Below, one piece after another: positions 25,819 through 62,519 of a stretch of DNA of 64,000 nucleotides. The number at the start of each line of letters is the position of its first letter. Within the stretch, counting starts at the first letter, position 1. Source of the stretch: a virus. A program made the position numbers and the translations under genes. Under the pieces are notes generated by a model. It was not told the origin of the DNA and searched no databases. It was given only the letters and a program-made list of their open reading frames with translations. The DNA lies in the IMG/VR virus record IMGVR_UViG_3300036391_000001, positions 7,563 through 71,562 of that record; one strand, written 5' to 3'.

Positions 25819-26583
25819 GTGCCTAGAAAGTTTGAGCCAGAGAAACACTGTGGAGCGATCGGCAAGAACGGTCAGCCTTGCACCCGCCCCAAAGGATCGG
25901 CAACCGATCATCCCGGTGAGGGCTGTTGCTACCTGCATGGGGACGCGGCGATCGTGCCTGTTGATGTGCCTGTGGAAGCGATCGCTGAGGTGGTCGTTCC
26001 CATCGCTGTCCGCCATCCCAACAAAGCCAGACCCGCCAATCAGAACGCGGTCAAGCATGGGCTATATGCCAGAGTATTGACGGGCGCGGCGGCAGTGCGG
26101 TTTGAGGCAGTGCAGCAACATGATCCGGCTTCCATCCTGCGAGAAAGTTTCTGCATGGTCCATGCCCGTGCCCTAGGGCTACTGGAAGGAGAGGGCAAGT
26201 TCGATCGCCAAGCTCAGACCGTTCTGGAAGCTTGCACCGTGCTAGTTGAGGCAGGGGAGCTGTCCGAAGATTTTGTCAAAGAGCTGGAGCTGCGGCTCTT
26301 GAATCTGGACATTGAGCGCCTTGCCCGTATCCTCAACAGCACGGTCAACCTGGCAAATGCGGCGGTATTTCATGAGCGCATGGGCAATTTGCAGCGGCAA
26401 TACGATCGCCTGATGGGATACCTGCAAGATTCGGTGAGATTGGGCGATCGCTCTATTAAGGAGCTGGCACTGCAAGCGATTCAGGAGCTGAAGCTTGAGG
26501 CAGGATTGCCGCTGGAGGAGCTAAATATGGCTTTACAGGCAATTCAGGAGGTTAAATCGGGTGAGGATGAGGAAGAAGCTTGA
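25819..26583 (+). CDS. Putative terminase small subunit
   Basis: N-terminal CGA..K.G.PC...C..HG Zn motif and NQNAVKHGLYA signature common in terS-like proteins. Confidence 0.7.
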   Translation: MPRKFEPEKHCGAIGKNGQPCTRPKGSATDHPGEGCCYLHGDAAIVPVDVPVEAIAEVVVPIAVRHPNKARPANQNAVKHGLYARVLTGAAAVRFEAVQQHDPASILRESFCMVHARALGLLEGEGKFDRQAQTVLEACTVLVEAGELSEDFVKELELRLLNLDIERLARILNSTVNLANAAVFHERMGNLQRQYDRLMGYLQDSVRLGDRSIKELALQAIQELKLEAGLPLEELNMALQAIQEVKSGEDEEEA

Positions 26584-26633
26584 ACTTCCGTACTACAATT
26601 GCGCTTAGCGTAGAGTTTAGGGGACTTCTGGCT

Positions 26634-26909
26634 ATGAATAAGGCGGAACTCGTGACGGCGATCGCCACCAAGACGGAATTTAGCAAGAAAGATATTGATT
26701 TGGTGCTATCAGCGGCGATCGAGGCGATTCAGGGCGCTGTTGCGGCTGGAGATAAGGTGACATTGGTAGGGTTTGGGAGCTTTGAACCGCGTGAGAGGGC
26801 GGCTCGTGAGGGGCGGAACCCTAAGACCGGAGAGGCGATGCAGATTCCAGCGAATACGGTTCCGGCATTTTCGGCAGGCAAGCAGTTTAAAGATCTGGTG
26901 GCAAGATAG
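26634..26909 (+). CDS. hup: HU family DNA-binding protein
   Basis: MNKAELV...GDKVTLVGFGSF...AREGRNPKTGE...PAF signature. Confidence 0.96.
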   Translation: MNKAELVTAIATKTEFSKKDIDLVLSAAIEAIQGAVAAGDKVTLVGFGSFEPRERAAREGRNPKTGEAMQIPANTVPAFSAGKQFKDLVAR

Positions 26910-27020: not shown

Positions 27021-27887
27021 ATGCCCCGTATTCAAACCGACTGGCTACCCACAGAACAATTAATGACCGCCTTTCACCCGCTGAACCCGATTCAGCATGA
27101 GGTCGAGGGCGATGTAAAGGATTTGGCGCTCTCGCTGTTGGAGGGCGGCTGGGTTGAGCCGATTACCCTAAATCAGCGCAATGGGCGGCTGGTAGGCGGA
27201 CATGGGCGAGTCGAGGCGGCGAACTGGCTCTTGCAGCAGTCTGAATCGTGGTTCGAGCATCGCTGGCAGCTATGGACGGCACATCACGAGGGCGGCGTAA
27301 GCGATGAAGAGCGTTTCACCGCAGAGTATTGGCAGAAGGCGCTAGTGCTAATGGTGGATCTGAGTGAGGCAGAGCATGAGGCAATGCTGATCCGCCTGAA
27401 CGACACCGAGAGCCAAGGCAAGGACGACCCGGAGAAGTTGAAAGCGCTGCTAGGACAGCTCCCCGGCAGGTTAAAGCAGCTAGCCGGGTATAGAGAGGCG
27501 ATAAGTGCTTCACACCCACAAGTGACCGCCCCAGAACCCCAGACCACCGAAGACTTTCAGGACAAGCAGCGGTTTGAAGCAGCAGGAGCGATCGATTATC
27601 GCGTCGCCGATGCACCGGAGCCAGACACGGCAGAGTATGCCAGTGGGGACGTGACAGAGTATGACGATCCGGATCAGGCGGGTGAATGGATTGAGGACGA
27701 AGAAGAGGATGAGCCTATTGAGCCGAAAGCGCCGCCGCCTGTGAGGGCTTTGTCGGTATCGCTGACCTGGGCACAGTGGAAGCTTTGGAATACCTGGAAG
27801 CGTGAGAACGATATCTCCAAGGATACCGATGCGTTTGTTAAGGGGCATGATGCCTATCAAGTTGTGGAGGAACCCGCCGATGCCTGA
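27021..27887 (+). CDS. ParB/Srx N-terminal domain protein, paralogue 1
   Basis: NP..H...L..SL..GW..PI..N...GRLVGGHGR motif; acidic linker. Confidence 0.82.
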   Translation: MPRIQTDWLPTEQLMTAFHPLNPIQHEVEGDVKDLALSLLEGGWVEPITLNQRNGRLVGGHGRVEAANWLLQQSESWFEHRWQLWTAHHEGGVSDEERFTAEYWQKALVLMVDLSEAEHEAMLIRLNDTESQGKDDPEKLKALLGQLPGRLKQLAGYREAISASHPQVTAPEPQTTEDFQDKQRFEAAGAIDYRVADAPEPDTAEYASGDVTEYDDPDQAGEWIEDEEEDEPIEPKAPPPVRALSVSLTWAQWKLWNTWKRENDISKDTDAFVKGHDAYQVVEEPADA

Positions 27888-28056
27888 ACTGAGCTTAGAA
27901 CAGTGCTTTGCGCTAGCGCACTTAGAGAAGGAATGCGAGCAAATGACGCTCGATCAAATCCGCGATCGCCTGATTCAGACCTACGAGCGCACTTTGCGAA
28001 TGGAAGCACAGTATCGCGCTGCGCTTAAGAAACAGTGGGGGATTGGCGATGCCTAA
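27880..28056 (+). CDS. nblA: NblA phycobilisome degradation protein
   Basis: MPELSLEQCFAL...MTLDQIRDRL...YRAALKKQWG matches the NblA LSLEQxF and Y..LLKxQWG signatures; 58 aa. Confidence 0.85.
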   Translation: MPELSLEQCFALAHLEKECEQMTLDQIRDRLIQTYERTLRMEAQYRAALKKQWGIGDA

Positions 28057-28966
28057 GAAACCGGAGATCCTTTATAAGACCGTCACTGAGCTGATGGCGC
28101 GGCATCACGAGGATAATCCTCGCGTCCACGGTTGGGATGCTGATTTGCCCAAATTGGTCAGGAGTCTCCTATTCTCAGGCTGGTGTGAGTTGCCCTCCTA
28201 CAACGAGAATAACGATCGCCTCATCGGGGGGCATGGGCGCGTCATGGCGGCTGAGTGGATGATTCAGCAAACGAAGGCTTGGTATGAAGAGCAATGGCAA
28301 TCCTATCTAGCCGTCAATCCTAGGGGCAGCAAGAAGGATAGAGAGCGGTTTGACGCGGGGTACTGGCTAAAGGTGCCTGTGCGGGTGAATCGTCTGGATG
28401 ACTCGCTGCACAAGGCAATGATGGTGCGGCTCAACAACCCAACCAGCCGGGGACGCACTAAGGAAGATATGAGGACGCTGCTCCTGTCGCGGCTGACTCC
28501 AGCGGCTCAAGACATTGCCATTCCCGACCCGGAACGCCGATCGCGGCTATTGGGGGCGATCGCCACTAAACGGGCTGAGGGTGCAGATGCTGAGGTGATC
28601 GAGCAGCAGGAACAGGCTGAAGGGATGGCGCGGGTGCAAGAGTCGCTAGCGGGTTTCGTGCCGCAAGAACCCAGTGATGCACCGCCCTCAGCTTTTGCGC
28701 CTGTGGCAAATCCCCAGACCTCTGCGGATTTGGATGCAGCCATTGATCCGGAGCCAGTCATTGAAGAAGGCGGGGCGCATTACAACGAAGATCCGGAGCC
28801 GGGGAAGAAGAAAGCGATCGCTTACCCACTGGCGATCGTGCTGTCGAATCGGCGCTGGCAAGAGTTTGAGGCTTATAAGGCGGCGATCGGGGTAGTCAGT
28901 GACCAGGTGGCGTTCCTCAAGGGCCATGTCGTATTTAATCAGAAAGAGGAAGAAGGCGATGAGTGA
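28049..28966 (+). CDS. ParB/Srx N-terminal domain protein, paralogue 2
   Basis: DNPRVH...LVRSL..SGW...YNE...RLIGGHGR; shares ERF.A.YW and FxKGH motifs with paralogue 1. Confidence 0.82.
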   Translation: MPKKPEILYKTVTELMARHHEDNPRVHGWDADLPKLVRSLLFSGWCELPSYNENNDRLIGGHGRVMAAEWMIQQTKAWYEEQWQSYLAVNPRGSKKDRERFDAGYWLKVPVRVNRLDDSLHKAMMVRLNNPTSRGRTKEDMRTLLLSRLTPAAQDIAIPDPERRSRLLGAIATKRAEGADAEVIEQQEQAEGMARVQESLAGFVPQEPSDAPPSAFAPVANPQTSADLDAAIDPEPVIEEGGAHYNEDPEPGKKKAIAYPLAIVLSNRRWQEFEAYKAAIGVVSDQVAFLKGHVVFNQKEEEGDE

Positions 28967-30191
28967 GAGTCTGAGTGTGTTTTGGGGTGGGCTGTTCAAC
29001 AATGCCTGCATCCCTCTAGAGATGAGCTTGAATTGGTGCAGTATGGGCTGCTCTTACTGCTTTGCCAATCTGAACAGCCCTGATCGCACGGGCAACATGA
29101 GTCAGATCATGGGGCTGATTAGCCAGTTTCAAGAGAAGAACACTTACGCGGCGGCGCTGCTGCGATCGGGTTATCCCGTTACCCTTTCCAATCATGTCGA
29201 TCCGTTTGCCGACAGCAATTCCCGTCAGGCGCTCGTCATTCTGGAAACGATGACCGAACTGGGCTTGCGCTACTCAATTCAAACCAAGTGCGGTAAATCG
29301 GGCTATGACTTTCTGAAGTTTGCATCGCCAACGGTGTTCTATATCTCGATCGCCACCATGGATGAAGAGGTGCTGCGGCGTGTCGAACCCGGTGCGCCAT
29401 CAGCTAAAGAGCGGTTCAAGTTTATTGAGGCGGCGCGAGCTGCGGGGCATCGGGTTTGTGTAGGCATTAACCCGGTGGTGCCGGAATGGATTGGCGATCC
29501 GAATCCCCTATGCAAAACGCTGGCTAGTATTGGCGTAGAGAGCGCCTGGGTGCAGCCGCTGCACTTGAGCTGTCATCATGTGGACAACATGAGCGATCGC
29601 GAGAGAGCGGCAATGGGTGAAACCGTTCTGAAGCGAGGGCGCAGGTTCCGCAAAGACCTGGAGATGAAAGAGGCTTGCACCCGCACCCGTGACGCAGCGG
29701 TTGAGCATGGGCTAGAGGTTTATGACGCGCAGCAGCGAGAGCGATCGGATTACTTCAGACCCTACAAAGAGACGTATCCCAAGACTTTCCCGCTGGTTCA
29801 GGACTTTGTAAACCACTGTTATGACAAGGGATTAGCTCCGAATGATCCCATCTACTTTGAAGATTGGCGAGACTTTATGCTGCCTCAGCTTCCGGCTGGT
29901 GTGCATCCGCTAAGGAACCACTTGGGAGCGGTGCAGTATCAGCAGTTTTGGCGGAGCGATCGCAACGATGAGATCCCGCGCTACATGACCTATGAGACGT
30001 TTTTGGAGATTACCTGGAATAACCATGACATCGTGTTTCATCCCTGCCATGTGGGCTGCTTCACGCTAGCAGGGGGCGCTAAGAATGAAGAGGGCAAGTA
30101 TCCGCTGCATCTAGACGATAACGGGCGCTATATCCTGCTGTTCCGTCCAGACGGCTGCTATGAGCGTGCTGCTGAGTGGGAGATGTGGTGA
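28959..30191 (+). CDS. Radical SAM protein, SplB/COG1533-like family
   Basis: CSMGCSYC (CxxxCxxC); DPF; IQTK; SIATMDEEVLRRVEPGAPS..ER motifs. Confidence 0.88.
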   Translation: MSESLSVFWGGLFNNACIPLEMSLNWCSMGCSYCFANLNSPDRTGNMSQIMGLISQFQEKNTYAAALLRSGYPVTLSNHVDPFADSNSRQALVILETMTELGLRYSIQTKCGKSGYDFLKFASPTVFYISIATMDEEVLRRVEPGAPSAKERFKFIEAARAAGHRVCVGINPVVPEWIGDPNPLCKTLASIGVESAWVQPLHLSCHHVDNMSDRERAAMGETVLKRGRRFRKDLEMKEACTRTRDAAVEHGLEVYDAQQRERSDYFRPYKETYPKTFPLVQDFVNHCYDKGLAPNDPIYFEDWRDFMLPQLPAGVHPLRNHLGAVQYQQFWRSDRNDEIPRYMTYETFLEITWNNHDIVFHPCHVGCFTLAGGAKNEEGKYPLHLDDNGRYILLFRPDGCYERAAEWEMW

Positions 30192-30311: not shown

Positions 30312-31637
30312 CTAGTCTTTCAATCCAGCGGCATCTGTAATCACTGTTCCAATAGAATTCGCAAAGAACTCAGGCGGCAGACCGCAAGCAAGACCAAAAT
30401 TCAAGCACAAATGCAACCAAAGAGTATCTTCAGTACCAATAAATAGTCCCTTTTCCTCGTCCTTAGGAAATCGTACATAATCCCTCATAAGCACAGGTAA
30501 GCCTAGCTGTTGAACGTGTTCTCCCCACGAGTCGAAGTCGTAGAACGGTACATGCCTCCACACACCATTAAGTTCTAATGCCACCTGAAAGTCAGTCAGG
30601 CTTGTTGTCTCACCAAGCCACTCCAGATAGTAATTCGCCAAAAAAGCAATCGTCAGCCAGATTGTGCCGACATTAAAGAATTTGAGGCTTGTATGGTGTC
30701 TACCACCTTTTATTTCAAGTCGATCAAGAATTTGCTGACGCACTATGGGTGAGCGAATTTTTGAAAAATCTTGCAGTTCAATTTGAGATAATGGGATAAA
30801 GATTTTTGCCCTACCGAGCGAGTCAAGCTCCATGGTGAGCGAGTGAAATGCTTCGTTCTGAATATTTGTGAGTCGGAGTACCACAGAGCTAGGAGTTGGA
30901 TGGGCCGCATTAAACGCTATGTTTCCTGATATTGTTGTCGCCTCAGGATTACTAAATAATGGAATCTGAATTGCTTTTTCGCTGGCTTTGAGTAAACCTT
31001 CAATTACCGATTTAGAACGTACATCAGGATGGTCAGTTAAGCCTAAGGGATATGGAGAAATATAGATTTTCAACCAACCATCCTCCTCAGCATTGCTGAA
31101 AGTGCGATCATCTTTTGAAAATCGTGCAAATTGTTTTGAAACTTCTTTTCCTCGTTCAACAAGCTGATCCACGGCATAACGACTCGATTCTGGTATGGGG
31201 TCAGAAGAATCATGAGTACGTCGATATAATCGTCCATCTCTTGTAATGAACGGAGTCTCCTGTTTATCAGGAATATGTACGACAAGCACTAAATTTCCGG
31301 TATCGAGCGTAATGACCTGTGGAAAAAAGACAGGCACCGGATCAATATGGTGCTTAACCAAATCGCGAACGACTGAGATTGGATCATGACAGGATGCAGG
31401 GTCAAAGCCGGAGACTACTGCTGCAACATTATGCTCATCAGTCTTGATCCCTACGATGTACCAACCACCATAAGTATTTGCAAGGGATGCCAAACTTCGA
31501 CCTATCTTTGTTGAGTTCGGCATCTCCCCTTTGTACTCGACGTAATAGCCTTCCGCTACTTGCCGTGTAATTAAGGTCTGAAGATCCTCAGGCTGAAGTG
31601 GTTCTCCAACTGCTTTGTCAAAAGGGTTATAGCTCAT
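30312..31637 (-). CDS. Schlafen/AlbA_2 domain protein (putative defence moron)
   Basis: EGYYVEYK...SLASLANTYGGWYIVGIK...R.H N-terminal motif; AT-rich; no HIP1 seen. Confidence 0.82.
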   Translation of the reverse strand: MSYNPFDKAVGEPLQPEDLQTLITRQVAEGYYVEYKGEMPNSTKIGRSLASLANTYGGWYIVGIKTDEHNVAAVVSGFDPASCHDPISVVRDLVKHHIDPVPVFFPQVITLDTGNLVLVVHIPDKQETPFITRDGRLYRRTHDSSDPIPESSRYAVDQLVERGKEVSKQFARFSKDDRTFSNAEEDGWLKIYISPYPLGLTDHPDVRSKSVIEGLLKASEKAIQIPLFSNPEATTISGNIAFNAAHPTPSSVVLRLTNIQNEAFHSLTMELDSLGRAKIFIPLSQIELQDFSKIRSPIVRQQILDRLEIKGGRHHTSLKFFNVGTIWLTIAFLANYYLEWLGETTSLTDFQVALELNGVWRHVPFYDFDSWGEHVQQLGLPVLMRDYVRFPKDEEKGLFIGTEDTLWLHLCLNFGLACGLPPEFFANSIGTVITDAAGLKD

Positions 31638-31932: not shown

Positions 31933-32367
31933 ATGGAAGATTTGATTTGTATTCAGCAGAGCAACGGCGCTCAGGCTAGCAGCGTTGATGTCACCGCTAA
32001 AGAGCGGGTTTTGGCAAACGGCGCACGCGCTTACCAAGCAGTTGACAATGCTACGGGCGGCAACAGCGATCGCGGCAGAAACTCTGGCTTTTCTTCCTTC
32101 AGCCGGACTGCCAATCGAATCACTGGAAGCGCTGCAAAATCGCAGGAATCAGCGGCTAAGAGCCTCCTGACTCGCGCTCAGCGTCAGATGCAGAGCGCAA
32201 CAGGCGCTGCGAAAGATAAGGCTAGCAAGTTCTTGGCGAAAGCTAAAGCTAAAGCGGCAGACACCTTTACTGCACCCGTCAGCGCAGCGCGATTGGTTAA
32301 TTCCAAGTCCAAGAAGTCTCAGGCGGGTAAGCGCACGACCTCCAGCCGGGTCAAGCAAGCCGCGTAG
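31933..32367 (+). CDS. Basic Ala/Ser/Lys/Arg-rich low-complexity protein
   Basis: AGGAG RBS, strongly biased composition, hairpin and U-tract downstream. Confidence 0.7.
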   Translation: MEDLICIQQSNGAQASSVDVTAKERVLANGARAYQAVDNATGGNSDRGRNSGFSSFSRTANRITGSAAKSQESAAKSLLTRAQRQMQSATGAAKDKASKFLAKAKAKAADTFTAPVSAARLVNSKSKKSQAGKRTTSSRVKQAA

Positions 32368-32605: not shown

Positions 32606-33700
32606 TTAGCCTTCAACTTCCTCCACTTCAGCCTCACGTTCGATGTCCACCACAATCCGATCGCTCTCAAAGCATTTGCGGAAGGCGGCAGAGTGAGAGG
32701 GATTATTGGGAGTCCAAAACTCATGCAGTAGACCGCTCTTGAGGGCGATCGGTTCAGAGAACATCATAGGACGTTCCAGGATCACCCCCCAGACATCACC
32801 ATTGCCAGCGGCGGCAGAGATCTCGGCAAGGCTGACCGGATAGCCGTGAACCTCTGCCTGGTAGTCTTCTTCCCAAGTTGCCGGGGTGTACTTTTTCACT
32901 TCCTTGATGAAGGCATAGCCCAGGATGCTGTTCATAGGTGCATCGGTGCGATCGATCTCCAGATCTCGCAATCCTTTCATCATCTGATCTTCCAGTTCTC
33001 CAGAAACTTCGGTGGCATGGATGATTAGATAGCGCCCTTCAAACTCGCTGACATCTTGGGAGTAAGGAATCATGCTAGTGATGGCACAAACCGCCTCAAA
33101 CGCCTGATCCGGACGCAGGGATACTGCGACGGCGCTCTTGATTTCATCCAGACTAATTACGTGATTGGGCATAGGTGTTTTGACCTCTCCTGCTAATTGC
33201 TTGAGCAGCTGCACCGTTGCCTCACTGCTTTCAGGCTCTAGCGTACCCACTTCAGGATGAACCCTGATAGGACGGGTGAAAGGAACGATCGCGTCTTTCG
33301 GTTCTGGCGCAGGGGCAACCACGGGCGATCGTCGTTCATCCGGCATCACGGGGTACCGCTCAACACCAGGTGCACTAAACGTATAGCGGAATGTGTCGCT
33401 CGTGAACTCAATGCCAGTAGCGATCGCGTTGATCCAGACCTGCTCACAAGTCCTAGCGACTGCCCTTAGCCATTTCTTAACTAGGTAGAAGGGACACAAC
33501 ACTTCAAACGTTGTAGGCTCAGGAGGAAGGACGATCCGCTTCCATCTGCCATCCAGGTTGTAAGCGGCGATCGTCGTTTGTTTACCGTCGCAGATGATAC
33601 GGACGCAGCTCATTGCCTCGTCGTGTATGCGGAGCTTGGATTCGGAAGGGACGATCGAGTTGAGCTGCTTGAAGGCGGCGTAGAGCGCTTTGGCTTGCAT
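32606..33700 (-). CDS. Single beta-clamp-like domain fused to an ASCH-like domain
   Basis: N-terminus follows the DnaN domain I pattern; C-terminus has the SLRP..A, LIIHA, ILG..I..V, W..LERP..F..PI pattern. Confidence 0.55.
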   Translation of the reverse strand: MQAKALYAAFKQLNSIVPSESKLRIHDEAMSCVRIICDGKQTTIAAYNLDGRWKRIVLPPEPTTFEVLCPFYLVKKWLRAVARTCEQVWINAIATGIEFTSDTFRYTFSAPGVERYPVMPDERRSPVVAPAPEPKDAIVPFTRPIRVHPEVGTLEPESSEATVQLLKQLAGEVKTPMPNHVISLDEIKSAVAVSLRPDQAFEAVCAITSMIPYSQDVSEFEGRYLIIHATEVSGELEDQMMKGLRDLEIDRTDAPMNSILGYAFIKEVKKYTPATWEEDYQAEVHGYPVSLAEISAAAGNGDVWGVILERPMMFSEPIALKSGLLHEFWTPNNPSHSAAFRKCFESDRIVVDIEREAEVEEVEG

Positions 33701-33729: not shown

Positions 33730-33762
33730 ATACGCGCCCCTAGTGCATCTAGGGGCGCGTAT
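33730..33762. terminator. Perfect 14-bp hairpin between ardC and the clamp-ASCH gene
   Basis: ATACGCGCCCCTAG-TGCAT-CTAGGGGCGCGTAT. Confidence 0.55.
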
Positions 33763-33767
33763 TTAGG

Positions 33768-34673
33768 CTATGCAGCTTCGGCTTGCTCGATTAGCCCTGC
33801 ATTGGTCATCAGGAAGGTTGAAGCTTTTTGAGCGGCTGAAGCGGCTTTAAAGAACGCTTTGTTATCACCCTTTAAAGCTTGTAGCCAGTTGTCTAGGTAG
33901 CTAGCATGGTTCTCAATCTCAGACTCAATCCCCAACTCATTGCAGACAAACGCCGCGCCTAGTTCAGCGATCAGCTCTTCAAAAGCGTAGGACTGAGAGC
34001 CAAACCGACCGGAGAGATCGCGATCGCAGCGGCTGCTATGACCTGTCCAGTGAGTTAGCTCATGGATCAGGGTTGCGTAATAGGTAGCGGCGCTGGTGAA
34101 GTCTTCAAACTTTGGCATGGCGATCGCATCGCTAGAAGGGCTGTAGCAAGCCACATCACCCAAGTGTTTGACCGTGGCTTTCTGGGTTTGGATAAAGGAT
34201 TCTGCATCCATCCGACGAGAATCTGGATTAGAACCGGATACAGATTTGAGGTGTTCTGACACCTTGCGATCGGCTTCAGAATCATCTAGACAGGCAATGT
34301 TGAAGACCTGTAGCCACTTAGCAGTGCCGAAGAATTCCTTTTCGGTAGAACCATCCTCTAGCTTGGTTTCTTTGCAGACGGTACCGCCCCAACGAAGCCA
34401 GGTGGACTTAGACCCTTTACGAACCTTCCAGCCCATCTCAGAAGCTTGTGAGAAGCCGATAAAGTAGGGTTGCTCATAGTCATAGGTCATCATGTCGATC
34501 GCGCAGAGTAGCGGGTTAATGCCCCGATAGGTATGACCTGAGATCAGATTGCCGTAGGGAACAGAGTGCCAGGGCTTCACCCAAGGTTTAACGCCTTGCT
34601 CCATCAACTGAACGATCTTGTCGGTAACGATCTGAAACTTGTCGGCAGCTTGCTTTTTGGTTTGTGCTTTCAT
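33768..34673 (-). CDS. ardC: ArdC family ssDNA-binding antirestriction protein
   Basis: PWVKPW, YRGIN, GW.VRKGSK, VFN, HELTHWTGH, YAFEELIAELGA, HASYLDNWL. Confidence 0.93.
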   Translation of the reverse strand: MKAQTKKQAADKFQIVTDKIVQLMEQGVKPWVKPWHSVPYGNLISGHTYRGINPLLCAIDMMTYDYEQPYFIGFSQASEMGWKVRKGSKSTWLRWGGTVCKETKLEDGSTEKEFFGTAKWLQVFNIACLDDSEADRKVSEHLKSVSGSNPDSRRMDAESFIQTQKATVKHLGDVACYSPSSDAIAMPKFEDFTSAATYYATLIHELTHWTGHSSRCDRDLSGRFGSQSYAFEELIAELGAAFVCNELGIESEIENHASYLDNWLQALKGDNKAFFKAASAAQKASTFLMTNAGLIEQAEAA

Positions 34674-37645: not shown

Positions 37646-39097
37646 ATGAGAGACTTATTTTCCTGGAGACTTCGTCTATCTGAAGCTGAGGTTTCAAAGC
37701 TGTGGGAGAGCGCCATTTTTGTCTTTGATACAAACTTTCTCCTAGATTTATATCGGTTATCGCGCAAAACTACTAACGATCTTTTAACGATATTAGAGCG
37801 TATTCAAGACAGAATTTGGATACCTTATCAAGTGGCTGACGAGTTCTTTAGAAATCGAGAAGCCACTATTGACTCAGAAGCAAGGTCTTTTGAAAAAGCA
37901 TTATCAGAACTGGAAAGCTGGAAACTTCAACAACAAAAATTTGGTAATCTTAGAGACAAACTCAGCAGCGCAGGAAGGACAATAGCTGCTGAATTAGTGT
38001 ACTTCCTGAATGGACAAGAGAATTATCTTGACGAGCAAAAGCGTTATCTTGATGCAGTTGATGAGTTAGTAGAAGCCTCTCGAGAAAAAATTAAACAGAT
38101 TGAGAGCGCTCATTTTCCGCTCAATGCAGATGAAGATCTTATTTTAGATAAGATCCTCTTGCTATTTGACTCGAAAGTAGGAAAAGCCTTTGATGACAAG
38201 GCTTTACAATCCTTATACAAGGAAGCCGACGAAAGATACGACCAATTAATACCTCCTGGCTATTGCGATGTCACAGACAAGAAGGGTAATGAAAAATACG
38301 GGGACTTTATTCTTTGGAAGGAATTACTAAACTTTGCAAAACAGGAATCCCGGCCAATTATTCTTGTGACCAGTGAAAAGAAAGAAGACTGGTGGATTAA
38401 ACAACAAGATGGAAAAATTAAATCTCCACGTTTAGAATTGCGTCGCGAGTTCCAAGAATATGTGAACCAGCCATTTTGGATGTATCGAACTGGGCATTTT
38501 CTTAAAGAGGCTAAGGAGAAGCTTGAGATTGAGATTGATCCAAAATCGATCGAAGAAACGGATGCAATTGCCGATATTGAGTTAGTTGACGAAAAAAGGC
38601 GTGACACTTTAAGGCAAGTAGCTGAGCATATAGTGTTAAAGCAGCTAGGAGGCCCTAGTGCTGCCATTGAACAGATACTTGAGAGAACAAGGTTGCCGAA
38701 CGCTGAAATGTTAGAGCAGCTAGGAGGCGCTAGTGCTGCCATCGAACGGATGCTTGAGAGAACAAGGTTGCCGAACGCTGAAATGTTAGAGCAGCTAGGA
38801 GGCACTAGTGCTGCCATCGAACGGATGCTTGAGAGAACAAGGTTGCCGAACGCTGAAATGTTAGAGCAGCTAGGAGGCGCTAGTGCTGCCATCGAACGGA
38901 TGCTTGAGAGAACAAGGTTGCCGAACGCTGAAATGTTAGAGCAGCTAGGAGGCACTAGTGCTGCCATTGAACGGATACTTGAGAGAACAAGGTTGCCAAA
39001 CGCTGAAATGTTAGAGCAGCTAGAGTTGTCTCATAAACCTCAAGTGAGAAGCGAAAAACCGAAACCTGAACAGGAAGATCCTTCTCTTGATAGCTAA
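37646..39097 (+). CDS. PIN-like domain protein (DUF4935-type) with C-terminal 25-aa tandem repeats
   Basis: FVFDTNFLLDLY, IPPGY.D, GDFILW, SEKKEDWW motifs. Confidence 0.82.
   Translation: MRDLFSWRLRLSEAEVSKLWESAIFVFDTNFLLDLYRLSRKTTNDLLTILERIQDRIWIPYQVADEFFRNREATIDSEARSFEKALSELESWKLQQQKFGNLRDKLSSAGRTIAAELVYFLNGQENYLDEQKRYLDAVDELVEASREKIKQIESAHFPLNADEDLILDKILLLFDSKVGKAFDDKALQSLYKEADERYDQLIPPGYCDVTDKKGNEKYGDFILWKELLNFAKQESRPIILVTSEKKEDWWIKQQDGKIKSPRLELRREFQEYVNQPFWMYRTGHFLKEAKEKLEIEIDPKSIEETDAIADIELVDEKRRDTLRQVAEHIVLKQLGGPSAAIEQILERTRLPNAEMLEQLGGASAAIERMLERTRLPNAEMLEQLGGTSAAIERMLERTRLPNAEMLEQLGGASAAIERMLERTRLPNAEMLEQLGGTSAAIERILERTRLPNAEMLEQLELSHKPQVRSEKPKPEQEDPSLDS
38641..39023 (+). repeat. 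In-frame 75-bp tandem repeat, 5 copies plus a partial copy
   Basis: Units start at 38641, 38716, 38791, 38866, 38941 (QLGGxSAAIERxLERTRLPNAEMLE). Confidence 0.97.
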
Positions 39098-50466: not shown

Positions 50467-51000
50467 ATGGCACTACTTTCGCCCGTCGAGATTTCTGTGA
50501 CGATCGCTACAGCGACCGTCAACCTTGCACTTCTAATAAAATGGCAGCAAGCCGAAACTAGGATTCAGCAGCTAACCGTCTGTCCTAGCTACGGATGCTT
50601 GACTAGACAAGGTGTTGATATAGAGTGGAAGCGAAGACACGATCGCCCTCCCAAGCCCAGTATTGTTTTCTTCGACATTGATGGCATGAAAGAGGCAAAC
50701 GCCAAGTGGGGTTACGCTGAGGTCGATCGCCGTATTTCGAGCGTAGTCTCTCAAATTCGCAGCAGTGAGCTAGTAACACTGGGGCGCTATTTTTCGGGTG
50801 ATGAGTTTGTCATTATTTGCTCAAAGTCCGAAGCTTATGTAACTGCGAATCGCATCTGCAAAGCCTTTGCCGACCAAAGCATGAGTGCCACGTTTGCGAT
50901 CGCCCCTTGCGTCTCCGCATCGCTTGAAGAGTGCGTCAGACCCGCCGCTGATGCAGTGCAACTGGCGAAGCTGCAAGGGCGGCGCGGGACGATTAATTAA
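50467..51000 (+). CDS. GGDEF-domain protein (SGDEF variant)
   Basis: FFDIDGMKEAN.KWGY..VD; GRYFSGDEFVI; no RxxD I-site. Confidence 0.85.
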   Translation: MALLSPVEISVTIATATVNLALLIKWQQAETRIQQLTVCPSYGCLTRQGVDIEWKRRHDRPPKPSIVFFDIDGMKEANAKWGYAEVDRRISSVVSQIRSSELVTLGRYFSGDEFVIICSKSEAYVTANRICKAFADQSMSATFAIAPCVSASLEECVRPAADAVQLAKLQGRRGTIN

Positions 51001-51051: not shown

Positions 51052-52707
51052 TCAACCTGCATTCAGTTCAAGCTGTTCACCCTCCCTTTCAATGTGGCGT
51101 GCAGAAGATTTTAGGACACCTGCAACTAAGGGCAAGCCGAGTCTAGTCTTGCCCTCTAGCACCTCTTCAATGGTGACAATCTGAATGCGGGGGGTGTCTG
51201 TATTGAACGACTCAGAATGATATAGCCCACAAGCCTTTGCCTCTTTCACCATTGCCTGTGTTGGCGGCTTGAGGGTGAGGAAGACTCCCAGCTCAGCGTT
51301 CTCTCGGCTGATTGTGCCAAACAAATCTCGAATGTCTCTAGAGTCAACCTTTCCCGACTTTACTTGGAAGATGACGCGACCAAACTTTTTATCAGTGATT
51401 GGAAAGAATCCCCACCCATCAACGCCCTGGTCTGCTCCCTTCTTCTGATTGATGGCGGCGCGGTTACTGGAGTAGGTCAGCACCGCCCATTTCTCAAACT
51501 CTTTTCGTAGCCGATCGTCTTTTTTGAGTGCCAACGCCTCAGCCGATTTTATGTCCTTGGGGATGCCTGTAAGCTTAAGCGAGTCCGAACTCACTACCTG
51601 AGCACCATGAGTGTCCTCTAGACGCTTCAGAATGAGGCTGATGCTTTGGTAGGTGATGTCGATGCCAATCCACTGGCGATCGAGCTTCTGGGCGACCGCT
51701 ACAGTCGTTCCGCAGCCACAGTAGGCATCTAGTACAACATCCCCTACGTTGCTACTTGCTTGGATGATGCGCTCCAGCAAAGCTTCGGGTTTCTGAGTGG
51801 GATAGCCGAGGCGTTCTTTATCATGTGCGCTTAAAGATGGAATGTCATCCCAAACATCAGATGTAGGAACCCCAGGCATTTCATCTAGGTAGCGCTTGAG
51901 TTGGGGTCGTTTGGATTTGCTATCTGGATACCAAATCCTGCCTTGAGCATCTAGCCCTGCCATTGTTTCCTTGGAATACCGCCAGCCGTTAGATGGCGAT
52001 AGAAATCCCTTCCATTCGTACATCATGTTTGGGCGAGGACTAGGGCTAGTCATGTCAGATAGCCGATAGCAGCGACCAGCCACGTCTGTGTGACGATAAA
52101 AGTCTTTAATATATTTCTCAGAGTAAGGAGAATATTGAACATTAAAACAATGTTGATTGCTCTTGGCGTAAAGAAAGATGATGTCGCTTGTAGAACCGTA
52201 TCGGCGTTTTGCGTCATTATGACCGTTGGTTCTTTTCCAAGTAATCTCGTTCTTAAAATCTCCGCCTTGTGAGCAGAAAACAGAGTCTAGAACCAACTTC
52301 AGATAGTGGCTAGACGTGGGATCGCAGTGCAAATAGAAGCTACCAGTAGGCTTGAGAACGCGATGAATTTCAGCAATTCGTAGGGTCATGCTGATGAGGT
52401 AAGCCAGCAAGCTACTTGCGCCCAAAACGTAATGCAGACCGATGATTAGGTCGATCGTCTGCTTGGCGAAAATCCCTCGATTGTTCTCTACGATTTCTTT
52501 GTAGCCGTTGATGGCTAAATCGTCCCAGTTCCAAGTATCAACAAAGGCTTGAGCCTGAGCTGCATCTTCTTTGCCAACGTTGTTGTAGATCTGGTTGTAA
52601 TTTCTTTTGGAGTTGAAAGGTGGATCGATGTAGCACAAATCCACCACTTCATCTTTGATGTGCTTCCTAAGAACTTCGAGGCTATCACCGTAATACAAGC
52701 GATTCAT
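51052..52707 (-). CDS. N6-A/N4-C DNA methyltransferase with C-terminal Mrr-like domain
   Basis: DPPFN motif [20 protein letters not shown]; GADQGVDG...IFQVKSG. Confidence 0.9.
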
Positions 52708-60565: not shown

Positions 60566-61941
60566 GCGGCTTCAGCGAGGGCGATCGCATCCGTGCCCAA
60601 TCTAATCGGGGTGAGGCGATCGAGGGCATCATCACCAGCCTAGGACGCACCTATGCTCAGCTCGACAACCATAAGAACCGCATTGCTCTTCTAGAAAGCG
60701 CTCAACTGGTTAAGGCTCAAGCTGTGCCAGAAGAGCTGCTTAGCTTAGTGGGCAAGGAGTGGAATGAGCAGGTTGATGAACTGCTAGAGGATCATCGCTT
60801 CTACAGCCTCAACGCCTGGTCTGGGGCAAAGCGATCGAAATCCCACACAACCTACAAGGGCTGGGATATCGGATTCCACAAGGATGCAGAGTTTGATATC
60901 ACCAAGGATGAGTACACCTGGTATGCCAAGCGGAAGGATCTACCACAGATAAAGGGCGATAAAGAAACCCTGGATTACTGCCATGAGGCGATCGACTCTG
61001 TAGAAGAGAGGCTGGCGGCGCTGGCTGAATGCTTGAAGGTTGACACGCTGACCGAGCTGTTGCAGCAGGTGGCTCAAGATTTTGAGGGCATGGCGATCGC
61101 CCCTTCAGCTCCTACGCATGAGCTAGCCACCAAACCTAGCGCCTTTGCCGAAGCCTACGAAGCCGAAGCGCAGCAGCTGGTCTGCCTCATCACCCTTGCC
61201 TCAGACATCAAAGCCGCCCACGGAGATTGTGAGCAAGCCCTGACGATCGCCCAGAGTGCTGAATCCAGCGCCCTGGAACACGGTCGGAGATGTGGCGAAC
61301 TGCTGCTAGCGGCAAAAGCGGCAAACGGGCACGGCGGCTGGGAGAAGTGGCGCAATGAGAATACAGGTATTGCTTCTAGTACAGCCAGTCTCTATCAGCG
61401 AGTCTACGAGCACTGGGATGAGATTCAGGAGTTGGAAATTACCTCGCTAAAGGGAGCCGATCGCCACTTCCGGGAAAGCAAAAAGCAGCTCAAGGCAAAT
61501 CCCCAGACCTCTGCGGAATTGTCAGCCTCCCCATCGCTGCCTCCAGTGGGCACCAAGCTAGAGGGCAGGAATGGAACCGTAGCTGAAGTCGTAACTCACG
61601 ATGGAGCGCTAGCGGTGGTTAACTCCAGAGACGGTGGCACCATGACTTCATCTCGCCTTACCGCCGGGGAGATCGGGCAGATATATCAGGCGGCTGCGGA
61701 GAAGGGCGATCGCTCGGAGGTGGCAGAGCTGGAGCAGTCTCAACCCAAAGCTAAGAAGGTCAAGGTTGGGCCTGGACATTTGAGGGCGATCGCCATTGAG
61801 CAGTCGTCTTCTGCCTTCAAGCTACTGAGTGGAATGAAAGGGAATTTGCCAGAAGAGGTTGACCTGATGGCTGTTGCCGACGCTTTGGAAGAGGCAATTA
61901 TGTCCGTTTTGGAAGAGCTGATTTTAGGGGAGGAAGGCTGA
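60541..61941 (+). CDS. DUF3102-domain protein (start uncertain)
   Basis: GELLLAAKA..GHGGWEKW..EN..I..STA.LY signature. Confidence 0.75.
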   Translation: MVSEEAGVGGFSEGDRIRAQSNRGEAIEGIITSLGRTYAQLDNHKNRIALLESAQLVKAQAVPEELLSLVGKEWNEQVDELLEDHRFYSLNAWSGAKRSKSHTTYKGWDIGFHKDAEFDITKDEYTWYAKRKDLPQIKGDKETLDYCHEAIDSVEERLAALAECLKVDTLTELLQQVAQDFEGMAIAPSAPTHELATKPSAFAEAYEAEAQQLVCLITLASDIKAAHGDCEQALTIAQSAESSALEHGRRCGELLLAAKAANGHGGWEKWRNENTGIASSTASLYQRVYEHWDEIQELEITSLKGADRHFRESKKQLKANPQTSAELSASPSLPPVGTKLEGRNGTVAEVVTHDGALAVVNSRDGGTMTSSRLTAGEIGQIYQAAAEKGDRSEVAELEQSQPKAKKVKVGPGHLRAIAIEQSSSAFKLLSGMKGNLPEEVDLMAVADALEEAIMSVLEELILGEEG

Positions 61942-62519
61942 TGGAGATTCGTATTATTTCGCTGCATCAGCCTTGGGCTTTGCTGGTAGCGATGAATTTG
62001 AAACGGTTTGAAACGCGAAGTTGGGCAACGCCCTACCGGGGCAAGCTGGCTATTCATGCAGCCAAGCGCTCAGTTGATTCGGATGGGTTTCTTCTGATCA
62101 GGAAAGCTTTTGAACTGGATGGCAGAGATTTTCAGCAAGAGCAAGGCTGGGTTGAAGGTCTTCAATTTGGCTGCATTCTGGCGATCGCTGACCTCACCGA
62201 TTGTCTGCTAATGGAGTCTCATCCCAAGATAGGAGCCTACTACGTTGAGCAAAATATCACATTGCACGCTCAAGGCAAGCCAAACGCGATCATCATTGAA
62301 ACCGCTTCAGACCTAGAACGCGCCGTCGGAGACTGGCGACCAGGGCGCTATGCCTGGAAGCTGGAGAACATTCGCCCGATCGCCAATCCCATTTACTACC
62401 GAGGCAGGCAGGGGCTAACCATCATTCGAGAGCCGATGGTGGTGCAGCAGATTGAGGAGCAGCTTGCACTAACCGATCGCATTGAGCAGCAGTTGCAAGC
62501 CATTAAGGAGGCGGTCTGA
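61941..62519 (+). CDS. ASCH domain protein
   Basis: ISLHQPWA, KRFETRSW, YRGKLAIHA, YAWKLEN..PI..P..RGRQGL. Confidence 0.9.
   Translation: MEIRIISLHQPWALLVAMNLKRFETRSWATPYRGKLAIHAAKRSVDSDGFLLIRKAFELDGRDFQQEQGWVEGLQFGCILAIADLTDCLLMESHPKIGAYYVEQNITLHAQGKPNAIIIETASDLERAVGDWRPGRYAWKLENIRPIANPIYYRGRQGLTIIREPMVVQQIEEQLALTDRIEQQLQAIKEAV

Follow-up and report, generated by a model that had tools for sequence, protein, structure and literature searches.

What can a single sliding-clamp domain do when it is joined to an ASCH domain and lacks the rest of its clamp? This question is raised by P0001, a 364-aa protein encoded by an uninterrupted open reading frame on the minus strand of a 64,000-nt stretch of viral DNA (the window, G000:C3:7563-71562). 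The source genome is 6.4 Mb in size and carries ~13 GCGATCGC (HIP1) sites per 10 kb, a density which we take to be the mark of a cyanobacterium. Contig C3 (72.3 kb) is one single prophage, with portal-like and capsid-like genes in its left part, genes for a tape measure, a terminase and a primase-like protein of 1079 aa, an integrase at its right end and a 14-bp direct repeat at both ends; the host's own dnaN sits on another contig, C1. The prophage, with the 14 bp as its att core, interrupts a type IV pilin-like gene within its 3' portion (ends of C3; L111, which covers C56:1-1500; L022; L023); this gene has a prepilin N-terminal motif, and its C-terminus is replaced by the prophage. Both att sites coincide with breaks in the assembly, as expected if excised prophage copies were present. 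A frameshift or assembly artefact as the origin of the short clamp portion was ruled out by five independent one-domain homologues and by the identical source contig.

We found no match to Pfam anywhere in P0001, and its N-terminal residues 2-131 matched PHROG_947 ('processivity factor') weakly (E 0.003). Two homologues, P0003 and P0008, exceeded the PF00712 cut-off, and a profile built from the six one-domain N-termini alone retrieved beta-clamp domain I in the PDB (best E 3e-5). The full-length AlphaFold model was of low quality in the linker and the C-terminal region; its domain I (pLDDT about 80-87) showed the topology of a clamp domain, with a helix at residues 3-13, four strands, a helix at 71-81 and three further strands, so that two helices lie on two sheets as in the clamp fold. 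It superposed on DnaN with a best rmsd of 1.8-2.3 A over about 121 columns. Residues 1-121 are thus a genuine beta-clamp domain I, and the first-pass annotation, which had read this region as DnaN domain I from the letters, was right on this point.

P0001 is nevertheless not a member of the DnaN family by its defining tests. It shares with DnaN (PF00712/PF02767/PF02768, TIGR00663) the fold and sequence of domain I, a three-domain clamp descent and the DNA-facing helices, but it has one domain instead of three and no match in NCBIfam, is fused to an ASCH domain and is only 14-20% identical to the domain I of the host DnaN; even its three-domain relatives score 79-131 against the TIGR00663 cut-off of 137.65. 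With domains II-III the peptide pocket (H175, L177 and M362-R365 in E. coli numbering, used for clamp residues throughout) has been deleted. Of the dimer interface, P0001 has the half that lies on domain I (I78/F106) and lacks the I272/L273 half on domain III, which bears out the earlier argument that a single clamp domain cannot form the normal dimeric ring. By inspection, we found no QL[SD]LF-like clamp-binding motif in P0001, and none is conserved in the alignment. A role as processivity factor was rejected for want of a pocket. The proposal of a clamp mimic or inhibitor therefore fails for a mimic that sequesters clamp partners, whose pocket lay in the deleted domains II-III, and survives in the form of interface capping, to which we return below.

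Stand-alone proteins resembling domain I may be common. By features, about 30 clusters of proteins of 101-129 aa in the ESM Atlas, mostly viral, are domain I-like (cosine 0.90-0.95; a lead), and in one of them 24% of members carry PF00712; possibly they form a wide class of single-domain clamp-like phage proteins. Separately, an IMG/VR contig carries a near-canonical dnaN of cyanobacterial type (L058:2-994, minus strand) about 7 kb from a relative of the radical SAM gene described below.

The C-terminal domain, residues 177-364, was modelled with a pLDDT of 91.9, and its top four structural matches among 48,161 chains were all ASCH domains: TRIP4 (Z 13.0), ZmASCH (12.4), ASC1 (11.5) and CXorf40A (10.7). 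A bridging homologue with an intact motif (PF04266-positive) aligned to it with an hhalign probability of 98.4. Structure prediction thus recovered both folds that had been proposed for P0001. Relative to known ASCH domains (TRIP4/ASC-1, ZmASCH, EOLA1 at Z 10.7 and YqfB at Z 6.9; PF04266), the domain shares the fold and a GR-x-x-I-H strand, but it is strongly acidic, has no Pfam match and, as the alignment to the bridging homologue shows, lacks the K, E and R of the G-K-x-x-[E/T/S]-x-R octapeptide; an isolated K persists in a few relatives, E and R in none. It is therefore ASCH by fold, a PUA-like barrel of ASCH type, and not by motif, and its description as degenerate holds. In ASCH proteins the octapeptide K, E/T and R are needed for ac4C hydrolysis, and K and E/T were required for catalysis in those tested (bioRxiv 10.64898/2026.02.27.708502; PMC6972931). 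Judged from its residues, the domain has lost catalysis, and an active amidohydrolase or nuclease was rejected on the loss of the motif.

H285 and W329 are invariant in 19 divergent sequences, and H228, P255, G261 and Y271 are nearly so; this conservation of His, Trp and Tyr suggests that a pocket has been retained. The domain carries a net charge of -19 (-13 to -22 across the fusions), and its pI is 4.1-5.1 in all members, placing P0001 within the lowest 1% of host windows. For the binding of nucleic acid or a modified base, the acidic surface and the conserved His/Trp/Tyr are thus opposite pointers. Between the two domains, Pro residues are enriched (13 in residues 111-178, compared with 14 in the remaining 296), in keeping with the Pro-rich linker noted at first pass; however, residues 135-176 of this stretch are more than a spacer, being conserved with an HPExGTLEP motif and a helix that also occur in the three-domain relatives.

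Table. Features of the P0001 gene, its surroundings and related loci. Positions are those of the window unless another locus is named.
Feature	Position	Strand	Basis or remark
P0001 gene, 364-aa clamp-domain-I / dead-ASCH fusion	32606..33700	-	ORF calling and homologues
Beta-clamp domain I, aa 1-121	33338..33700	-	PDB profile match, AlphaFold model, DnaN superposition, residue alignment
Block not aligning with L001 (about aa 18-103), flanks 83-94% identical	33392..33646	-	Swapped module
Linker aa 122-134 and pre-ASCH segment aa 135-176	33173..33337	-	Pro count, alignment, model
ASCH-fold domain, aa 177-364	32609..33172	-	Model, structural matches, conservation, charge
Intrinsic-terminator-like hairpin directly 3' of P0001 gene	32550..32580	-	
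14-bp GC-rich hairpin, no U tract, z -5.7, in ardC-P0001 gap	33730..33762	-	
ardC (Pfam ArdcN and MPTase-PolyVal)	33768-34673	-	Upstream of P0001 gene, 67 nt gap
Convergent gene, very basic 144-aa protein	31933..32367	+	
Two ParB-like genes and radical SAM gene (SPL/Rv2578c-like), ParB-terminase locus	27021..30191	+	Syntenic with fusion gene in phage family
GIY-YIG, middle domain (by eye PUA/EVE-like) and dead ASCH	L010:1474-2895	-	
GIY-YIG, middle domain (by eye PUA/EVE-like) and dead ASCH	L012:619-1869	+	
Intact and dead ASCH tandem gene directly upstream of GmrSD_N gene; RNase III-like gene also there	L112:195-3864		

The fused family comprises ten sequences, all except P0001 from metagenomic or sequencing-run assemblies. 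Five proteins (365-389 aa) share the one-domain architecture of P0001, and four (P0005, P0007, P0009 and P0020; 620-641 aa) carry the same ASCH-like domain after all three clamp domains. Wherever context exists, both forms occupy one slot, flanked by the ParB-ParB-radical SAM genes and the basic protein on one side and the large terminase on the other. Dead-ASCH domains of the same kind also stand alone (P0010-P0017 and P0019). No further copy of the fusion was found in the cyanobacterial genomes searched, in pattern scans for the C-terminal domain across viral and genome contigs, in ParB scans, by tblastn of INPHARED phages or in 400 genomes of the class; 60 related genomes gave weak matches to the N-terminal part alone, dnaN-like where read. 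The openly accessible literature that was searched described neither a clamp-ASCH fusion nor a single-domain clamp, and the fusion, although built from known parts, is undescribed there. On one metagenome contig (L014) part of a three-domain fusion gene lies inside an array of CRISPR-like repeats; the contig is probably a chimera that was joined through spacers matching the fusion gene, and L015 is similar by match position.

Relatives of the ASCH half keep other company. In two cyanobacterial genomes a GIY-YIG fusion ends in the same dead-ASCH subfamily; these proteins are candidate modification-dependent nucleases, of which PADLOC calls the GIY-YIG part alone. In P0018 an intact ASCH is followed by a dead ASCH in tandem. 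P0001, P0005 and P0018 had no match among the PADLOC profiles (2023 library). P0001 resembles PUA-superfamily readers of modification-dependent restriction systems (EVE-HNH VcaM4I, YTH-McrB, HTH-ASCH, HsdS-ASCH), in which a PUA-like barrel is combined with a separate DNA-handling domain, and its relatives are fused to GIY-YIG or lie beside GmrSD_N. It differs from them in being phage-borne, in having no nuclease and in having a clamp fragment as partner, and its base reading is a prediction. By analogy, if P0001 works at all, it would do so in the manner of a reader module whose partner positions it on DNA.

To place the one-domain form among its relatives, we compared trees of the two halves. 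In a domain I tree rooted with other DnaNs (120 columns, with a long branch to the one-domain clade), the six one-domain forms made a single clade (100/100) that was sister to P0005/P0009 (100/99), and a grouping of the four three-domain forms as one clade was rejected (p-AU 0.007). Nested among three-domain forms in this way, the one-domain clade is most simply read as the product of a single deletion of domains II-III, which from the alignment maps to the linker/pre-ASCH region. The ASCH tree disagrees (one-domain clade p-AU 2e-45): the ASCH domain of P0001 is 65% identical to that of three-domain P0005 and about 40% to those of other one-domain forms, from which we conclude that the two halves recombine. 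Repeated independent truncation, as the ASCH tree might hint, was rejected, the N-domain tree giving one clade and recombination accounting for the discordance. An exchange is visible against the nearest phage, L001, which is 79-94% identical in DNA over about 14 kb. The identity of the two proteins is 50-54% within the swapped block and 96-97% in the ASCH domain, with dS values of 1.2 and 0.4, respectively, indicating that domain I has been swapped between close phages. In another relative the same region is replaced (336 by 312 nt), with the same 24-nt difference as in L001; it is probably of the same lineage and was not counted as independent. A cyanobacterial donor of the clamp is plausible from a shared PLGG motif (support 72/82).

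Domain I is under purifying selection: between P0003 and P0004 its pN is 0.10 and its pS 0.78, and omega is 0.32-0.33 in two other pairs. This bears on whether domain I is a vestige that serves only as a folding or expression leader while the ASCH domain does all the work, as might be thought from the stand-alone dead-ASCH proteins and the long branch leading to the one-domain clade. However, selection on domain I is as strong as that on the ASCH part (82% compared with 76% identity between P0003 and P0004), and the domain is intact across six lineages that are 29-81% identical, so that we regard a mere leader as very improbable. P0001 as a whole is best explained as an early protein of the prophage, descended from a captured DnaN that was first joined to a non-catalytic ASCH domain and later trimmed to domain I.

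The residues of the three-domain fusions record intermediate stages of this reduction. In all four, M362-P363-M364 is replaced as a set, L177 is replaced as well, and the five residues preceding the domain III interface strand are missing. Mutation of I272/L273 weakens the DnaN dimer, and the pocket residues are needed for partner binding (PMC11139829). With their pocket residues lost, the three-domain fusions are unlikely to bind either polymerase or the delta subunit of the loader. The I272/L273 pair itself is deleted in the two fusions that are sister to the one-domain clade (P0005 and P0009), and in the lineage that unites them position 104 has changed from G/S to I/F and position 72 from A to F/H. 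P0001 retains Y106 and F108 and has a new F at 104; such large residues at 104 and 72 may fill the room of the missing partner.

One might suppose that six single domains assemble head-to-tail around DNA in place of the 2 x 3 clamp. Both edge strands and the complete fold are retained, the one-domain form replaces the three-domain form at the same locus, and the ESM Atlas look-alikes are many, stand-alone and mostly viral. Such a protein would be a naturally occurring sliding clamp of 6 x 1 type that arose secondarily from the 2 x 3 form and scans phage DNA with six ASCH readers. We think this quite improbable, however: the nearest three-domain relatives already lack the domain III dimer residues, so that ring closure was seemingly dispensable before the deletion, no loader pocket remains, and the other edge strand is less conserved (33% identity, with a W/F-K start in four of the six one-domain forms).

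The interface strand itself, 103-109, is better kept, with a mean identity of 47% against 14-26% for the two strands before it (Y106 invariant, F/L108, R/K105 in five of the six one-domain forms). Few parts of domain I are kept as well as its half of the dimer interface, which could mean that P0001 caps the host clamp. The last strand and second helix of its domain I would pair with domain III where that edge is free, on a single DnaN subunit or on a clamp opened by the loader, so that either ring closure is blocked or the ASCH domain rides on the clamp. The swap of domain I between close phages would fit a host-matched module, and phages do target the clamp: Twort Gp168 (PMC8565349) is, as P0001 may be, a phage protein bearing on the host clamp, but a small one that plugs the DNA channel and is not described as a clamp fragment fused to ASCH. 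Yet the kept interface residues are also core residues of the fold, the changes of G/S104 and A72 to F in the lineage that lost I272/L273 resemble self-capping, domain I has diverged far from that of the host, and it would have to compete with a host dimer of pM affinity (PMC11139829). We consider capping unlikely.

The DNA-facing side of the domain has moved in another direction. Seven cyanobacterial DnaNs have G/S/N at 76 and D at 77; each of the six one-domain forms has K/R at both positions. K/R also occurs at 15 or 16 in all six (S/A-L/I in the DnaNs) and at 80 in four of them (S in the DnaNs); P0001 is basic at 15, 76, 77 and 80. The net charge of domain I is 0 to +5 in one-domain forms and -4 to -7 in the cyanobacterial DnaNs. 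According to published residue roles, domain I supplies most of the contacts that beta makes with DNA (Q15, G23, R24, R73, R80), and DNA binding persists in a clamp that is monomeric (PMC11139829). The order of events, in which the pocket was lost, then the interface, then domains II-III, and the DNA face became more basic, points to a function that resides in domain I and is free of the ring.

We therefore favor, tentatively and at somewhat less than even confidence, a reading in which domain I is a ring-independent pad for gripping DNA, by which an acidic ASCH reader devoid of catalysis is brought onto phage DNA, probably for anti-restriction. A captured DnaN would first have been joined to a non-catalytic ASCH domain; the peptide pocket and then the domain III dimer residues were lost, and domains II-III were deleted once, leaving domain I. 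The latter would grip the DNA backbone non-specifically, with neither ring nor loader, and carry onto phage DNA an ASCH domain that by itself would be a poor DNA gripper. The His/Trp/Tyr pocket would bind a flipped or modified base without cleaving, most likely shielding phage DNA from, or competing with, modification-dependent restriction enzymes; a second possible purpose would be to read a mark set by the neighboring ParB and radical SAM genes. Of the suggested tether of a nucleic-acid-binding ASCH domain to replication forks, attachment to DNA through the DNA-facing helices thus stands, and the fork does not, since no pocket or clamp-binding motif remains.

Several lines of evidence bear on the ASCH domain as a reader. 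The same dead-ASCH subfamily occurs in the GIY-YIG fusions and near GmrSD_N (two cases only), and the structure of the top structural match, the TRIP4 ASCH, was solved with dsDNA. ASCH domains are predicted to read modified DNA (PMC4738411; PMC7641849), and ASCH fusions to HTH or HsdS have been interpreted as modified-DNA binders (PMC7641849), a prediction awaiting experimental confirmation (PMC11037411). Against the DNA pad, none of the six one-domain forms retains R73 and three of them lack R24, the fused family is small at ten sequences, the acidity of the ASCH domain would fit protein binding or DNA mimicry equally well, and the exchange of domain I between close phages is better suited to a protein partner that varies than to plain DNA.

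The last two points would suit a protein decoy or adaptor. The acidic dead ASCH would then have a protein ligand (one of host defence, an active ASCH or the neighboring basic protein), and domain I would be a module that varies with its partner, acting for instance as a decoy for loader subunits or for an immune sensor that touches domain I. Loader subunits do touch domain I (PMC11139829), the ASCH domains are uniformly acidic, and the domain trees are discordant. An intact ASCH is paired with a dead one in P0018, and one is encoded in the same prophage: a second ASCH gene in the replication region (window 61941-62519, plus strand) has K, E and R intact and is neutral in charge. The candidate basic partner is constant in position, with a basic ORF of 125-174 aa convergent to the fusion gene in 9/9 loci that reach it. 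Its product in the window is rich in Ala, Lys, Ser and Arg (net +16); across the nine loci the ORFs carry net +14 to +25 and their sequences diverge fast. However, L013, an intact-motif ASCH of the same subfamily, and a GIY-YIG-fused copy are equally acidic, so the acidity is older than the clamp fusion, and the gained basic residues of domain I are left unexplained. A decoy or adaptor is to us about as doubtful as the capping of the host clamp.

The shared slot places the fusion gene beside a candidate DNA-modification module, a ParB/ParB/radical SAM set flanked by a small-terminase-like gene and terL. As in the phage ParB-terminase DNA-modification loci (PMC4738411), the fusion gene lies between ParB-ParB-radical SAM and the large terminase; it differs from them in its opposite strand and in its absence from more distant loci. 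In 74 IMG/VR loci with a relative of the radical SAM gene, the DNA fetched (short for many loci) held no fusion gene, which argues against an obligate link, and obligate membership of the module was rejected on this ground; the radical SAM family was not found in INPHARED. Several other genes of the window were recorded in passing. A Schlafen/AlbA_2 gene (30312-31637, minus strand) and a gene (37646-39097, plus) whose 483-aa product has a C-terminal unit in repeat are both absent from the corresponding slots of related phages and are probable cargo or defence genes; an N6/N4 methylase is fused to an Mrr-like domain (51052-52707, minus), and there are a GGDEF-like gene (50467-51000, plus) and an HU gene (26580-26909, plus). 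In L001, nblA adjoins the ParB genes.

On the other side of the fusion gene, ardC was thought to be co-transcribed with it, and we consider this plausible; it lies on the same strand, and a hairpin, similar to one found in L001, stands in the gap. Among eight loci with upstream DNA, ardC lies upstream in three (the window, L001 and L004), and it is an accessory gene whose linkage to the fusion is not conserved.

The rarity of the family and the putative mechanism limit its significance. Even so, the fusions form a natural stepwise series, from a host-type clamp through a three-domain fusion with no pocket and then one with no interface to a single domain. The series shows that selection can favor a clamp domain even where ring, loader and polymerase play no part. 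The role of an isolated clamp domain, whether as DNA pad, clamp cap or hexamer, can now be tested with small proteins, and with the same proteins so can the reading of modified DNA by ASCH domains. If a 6 x 1 clamp were true, the stand-alone clamp-like phage proteins of 100-130 aa would be further cases. In any event, the family draws attention to clamp-like phage proteins of a single domain, a group that has had little notice.
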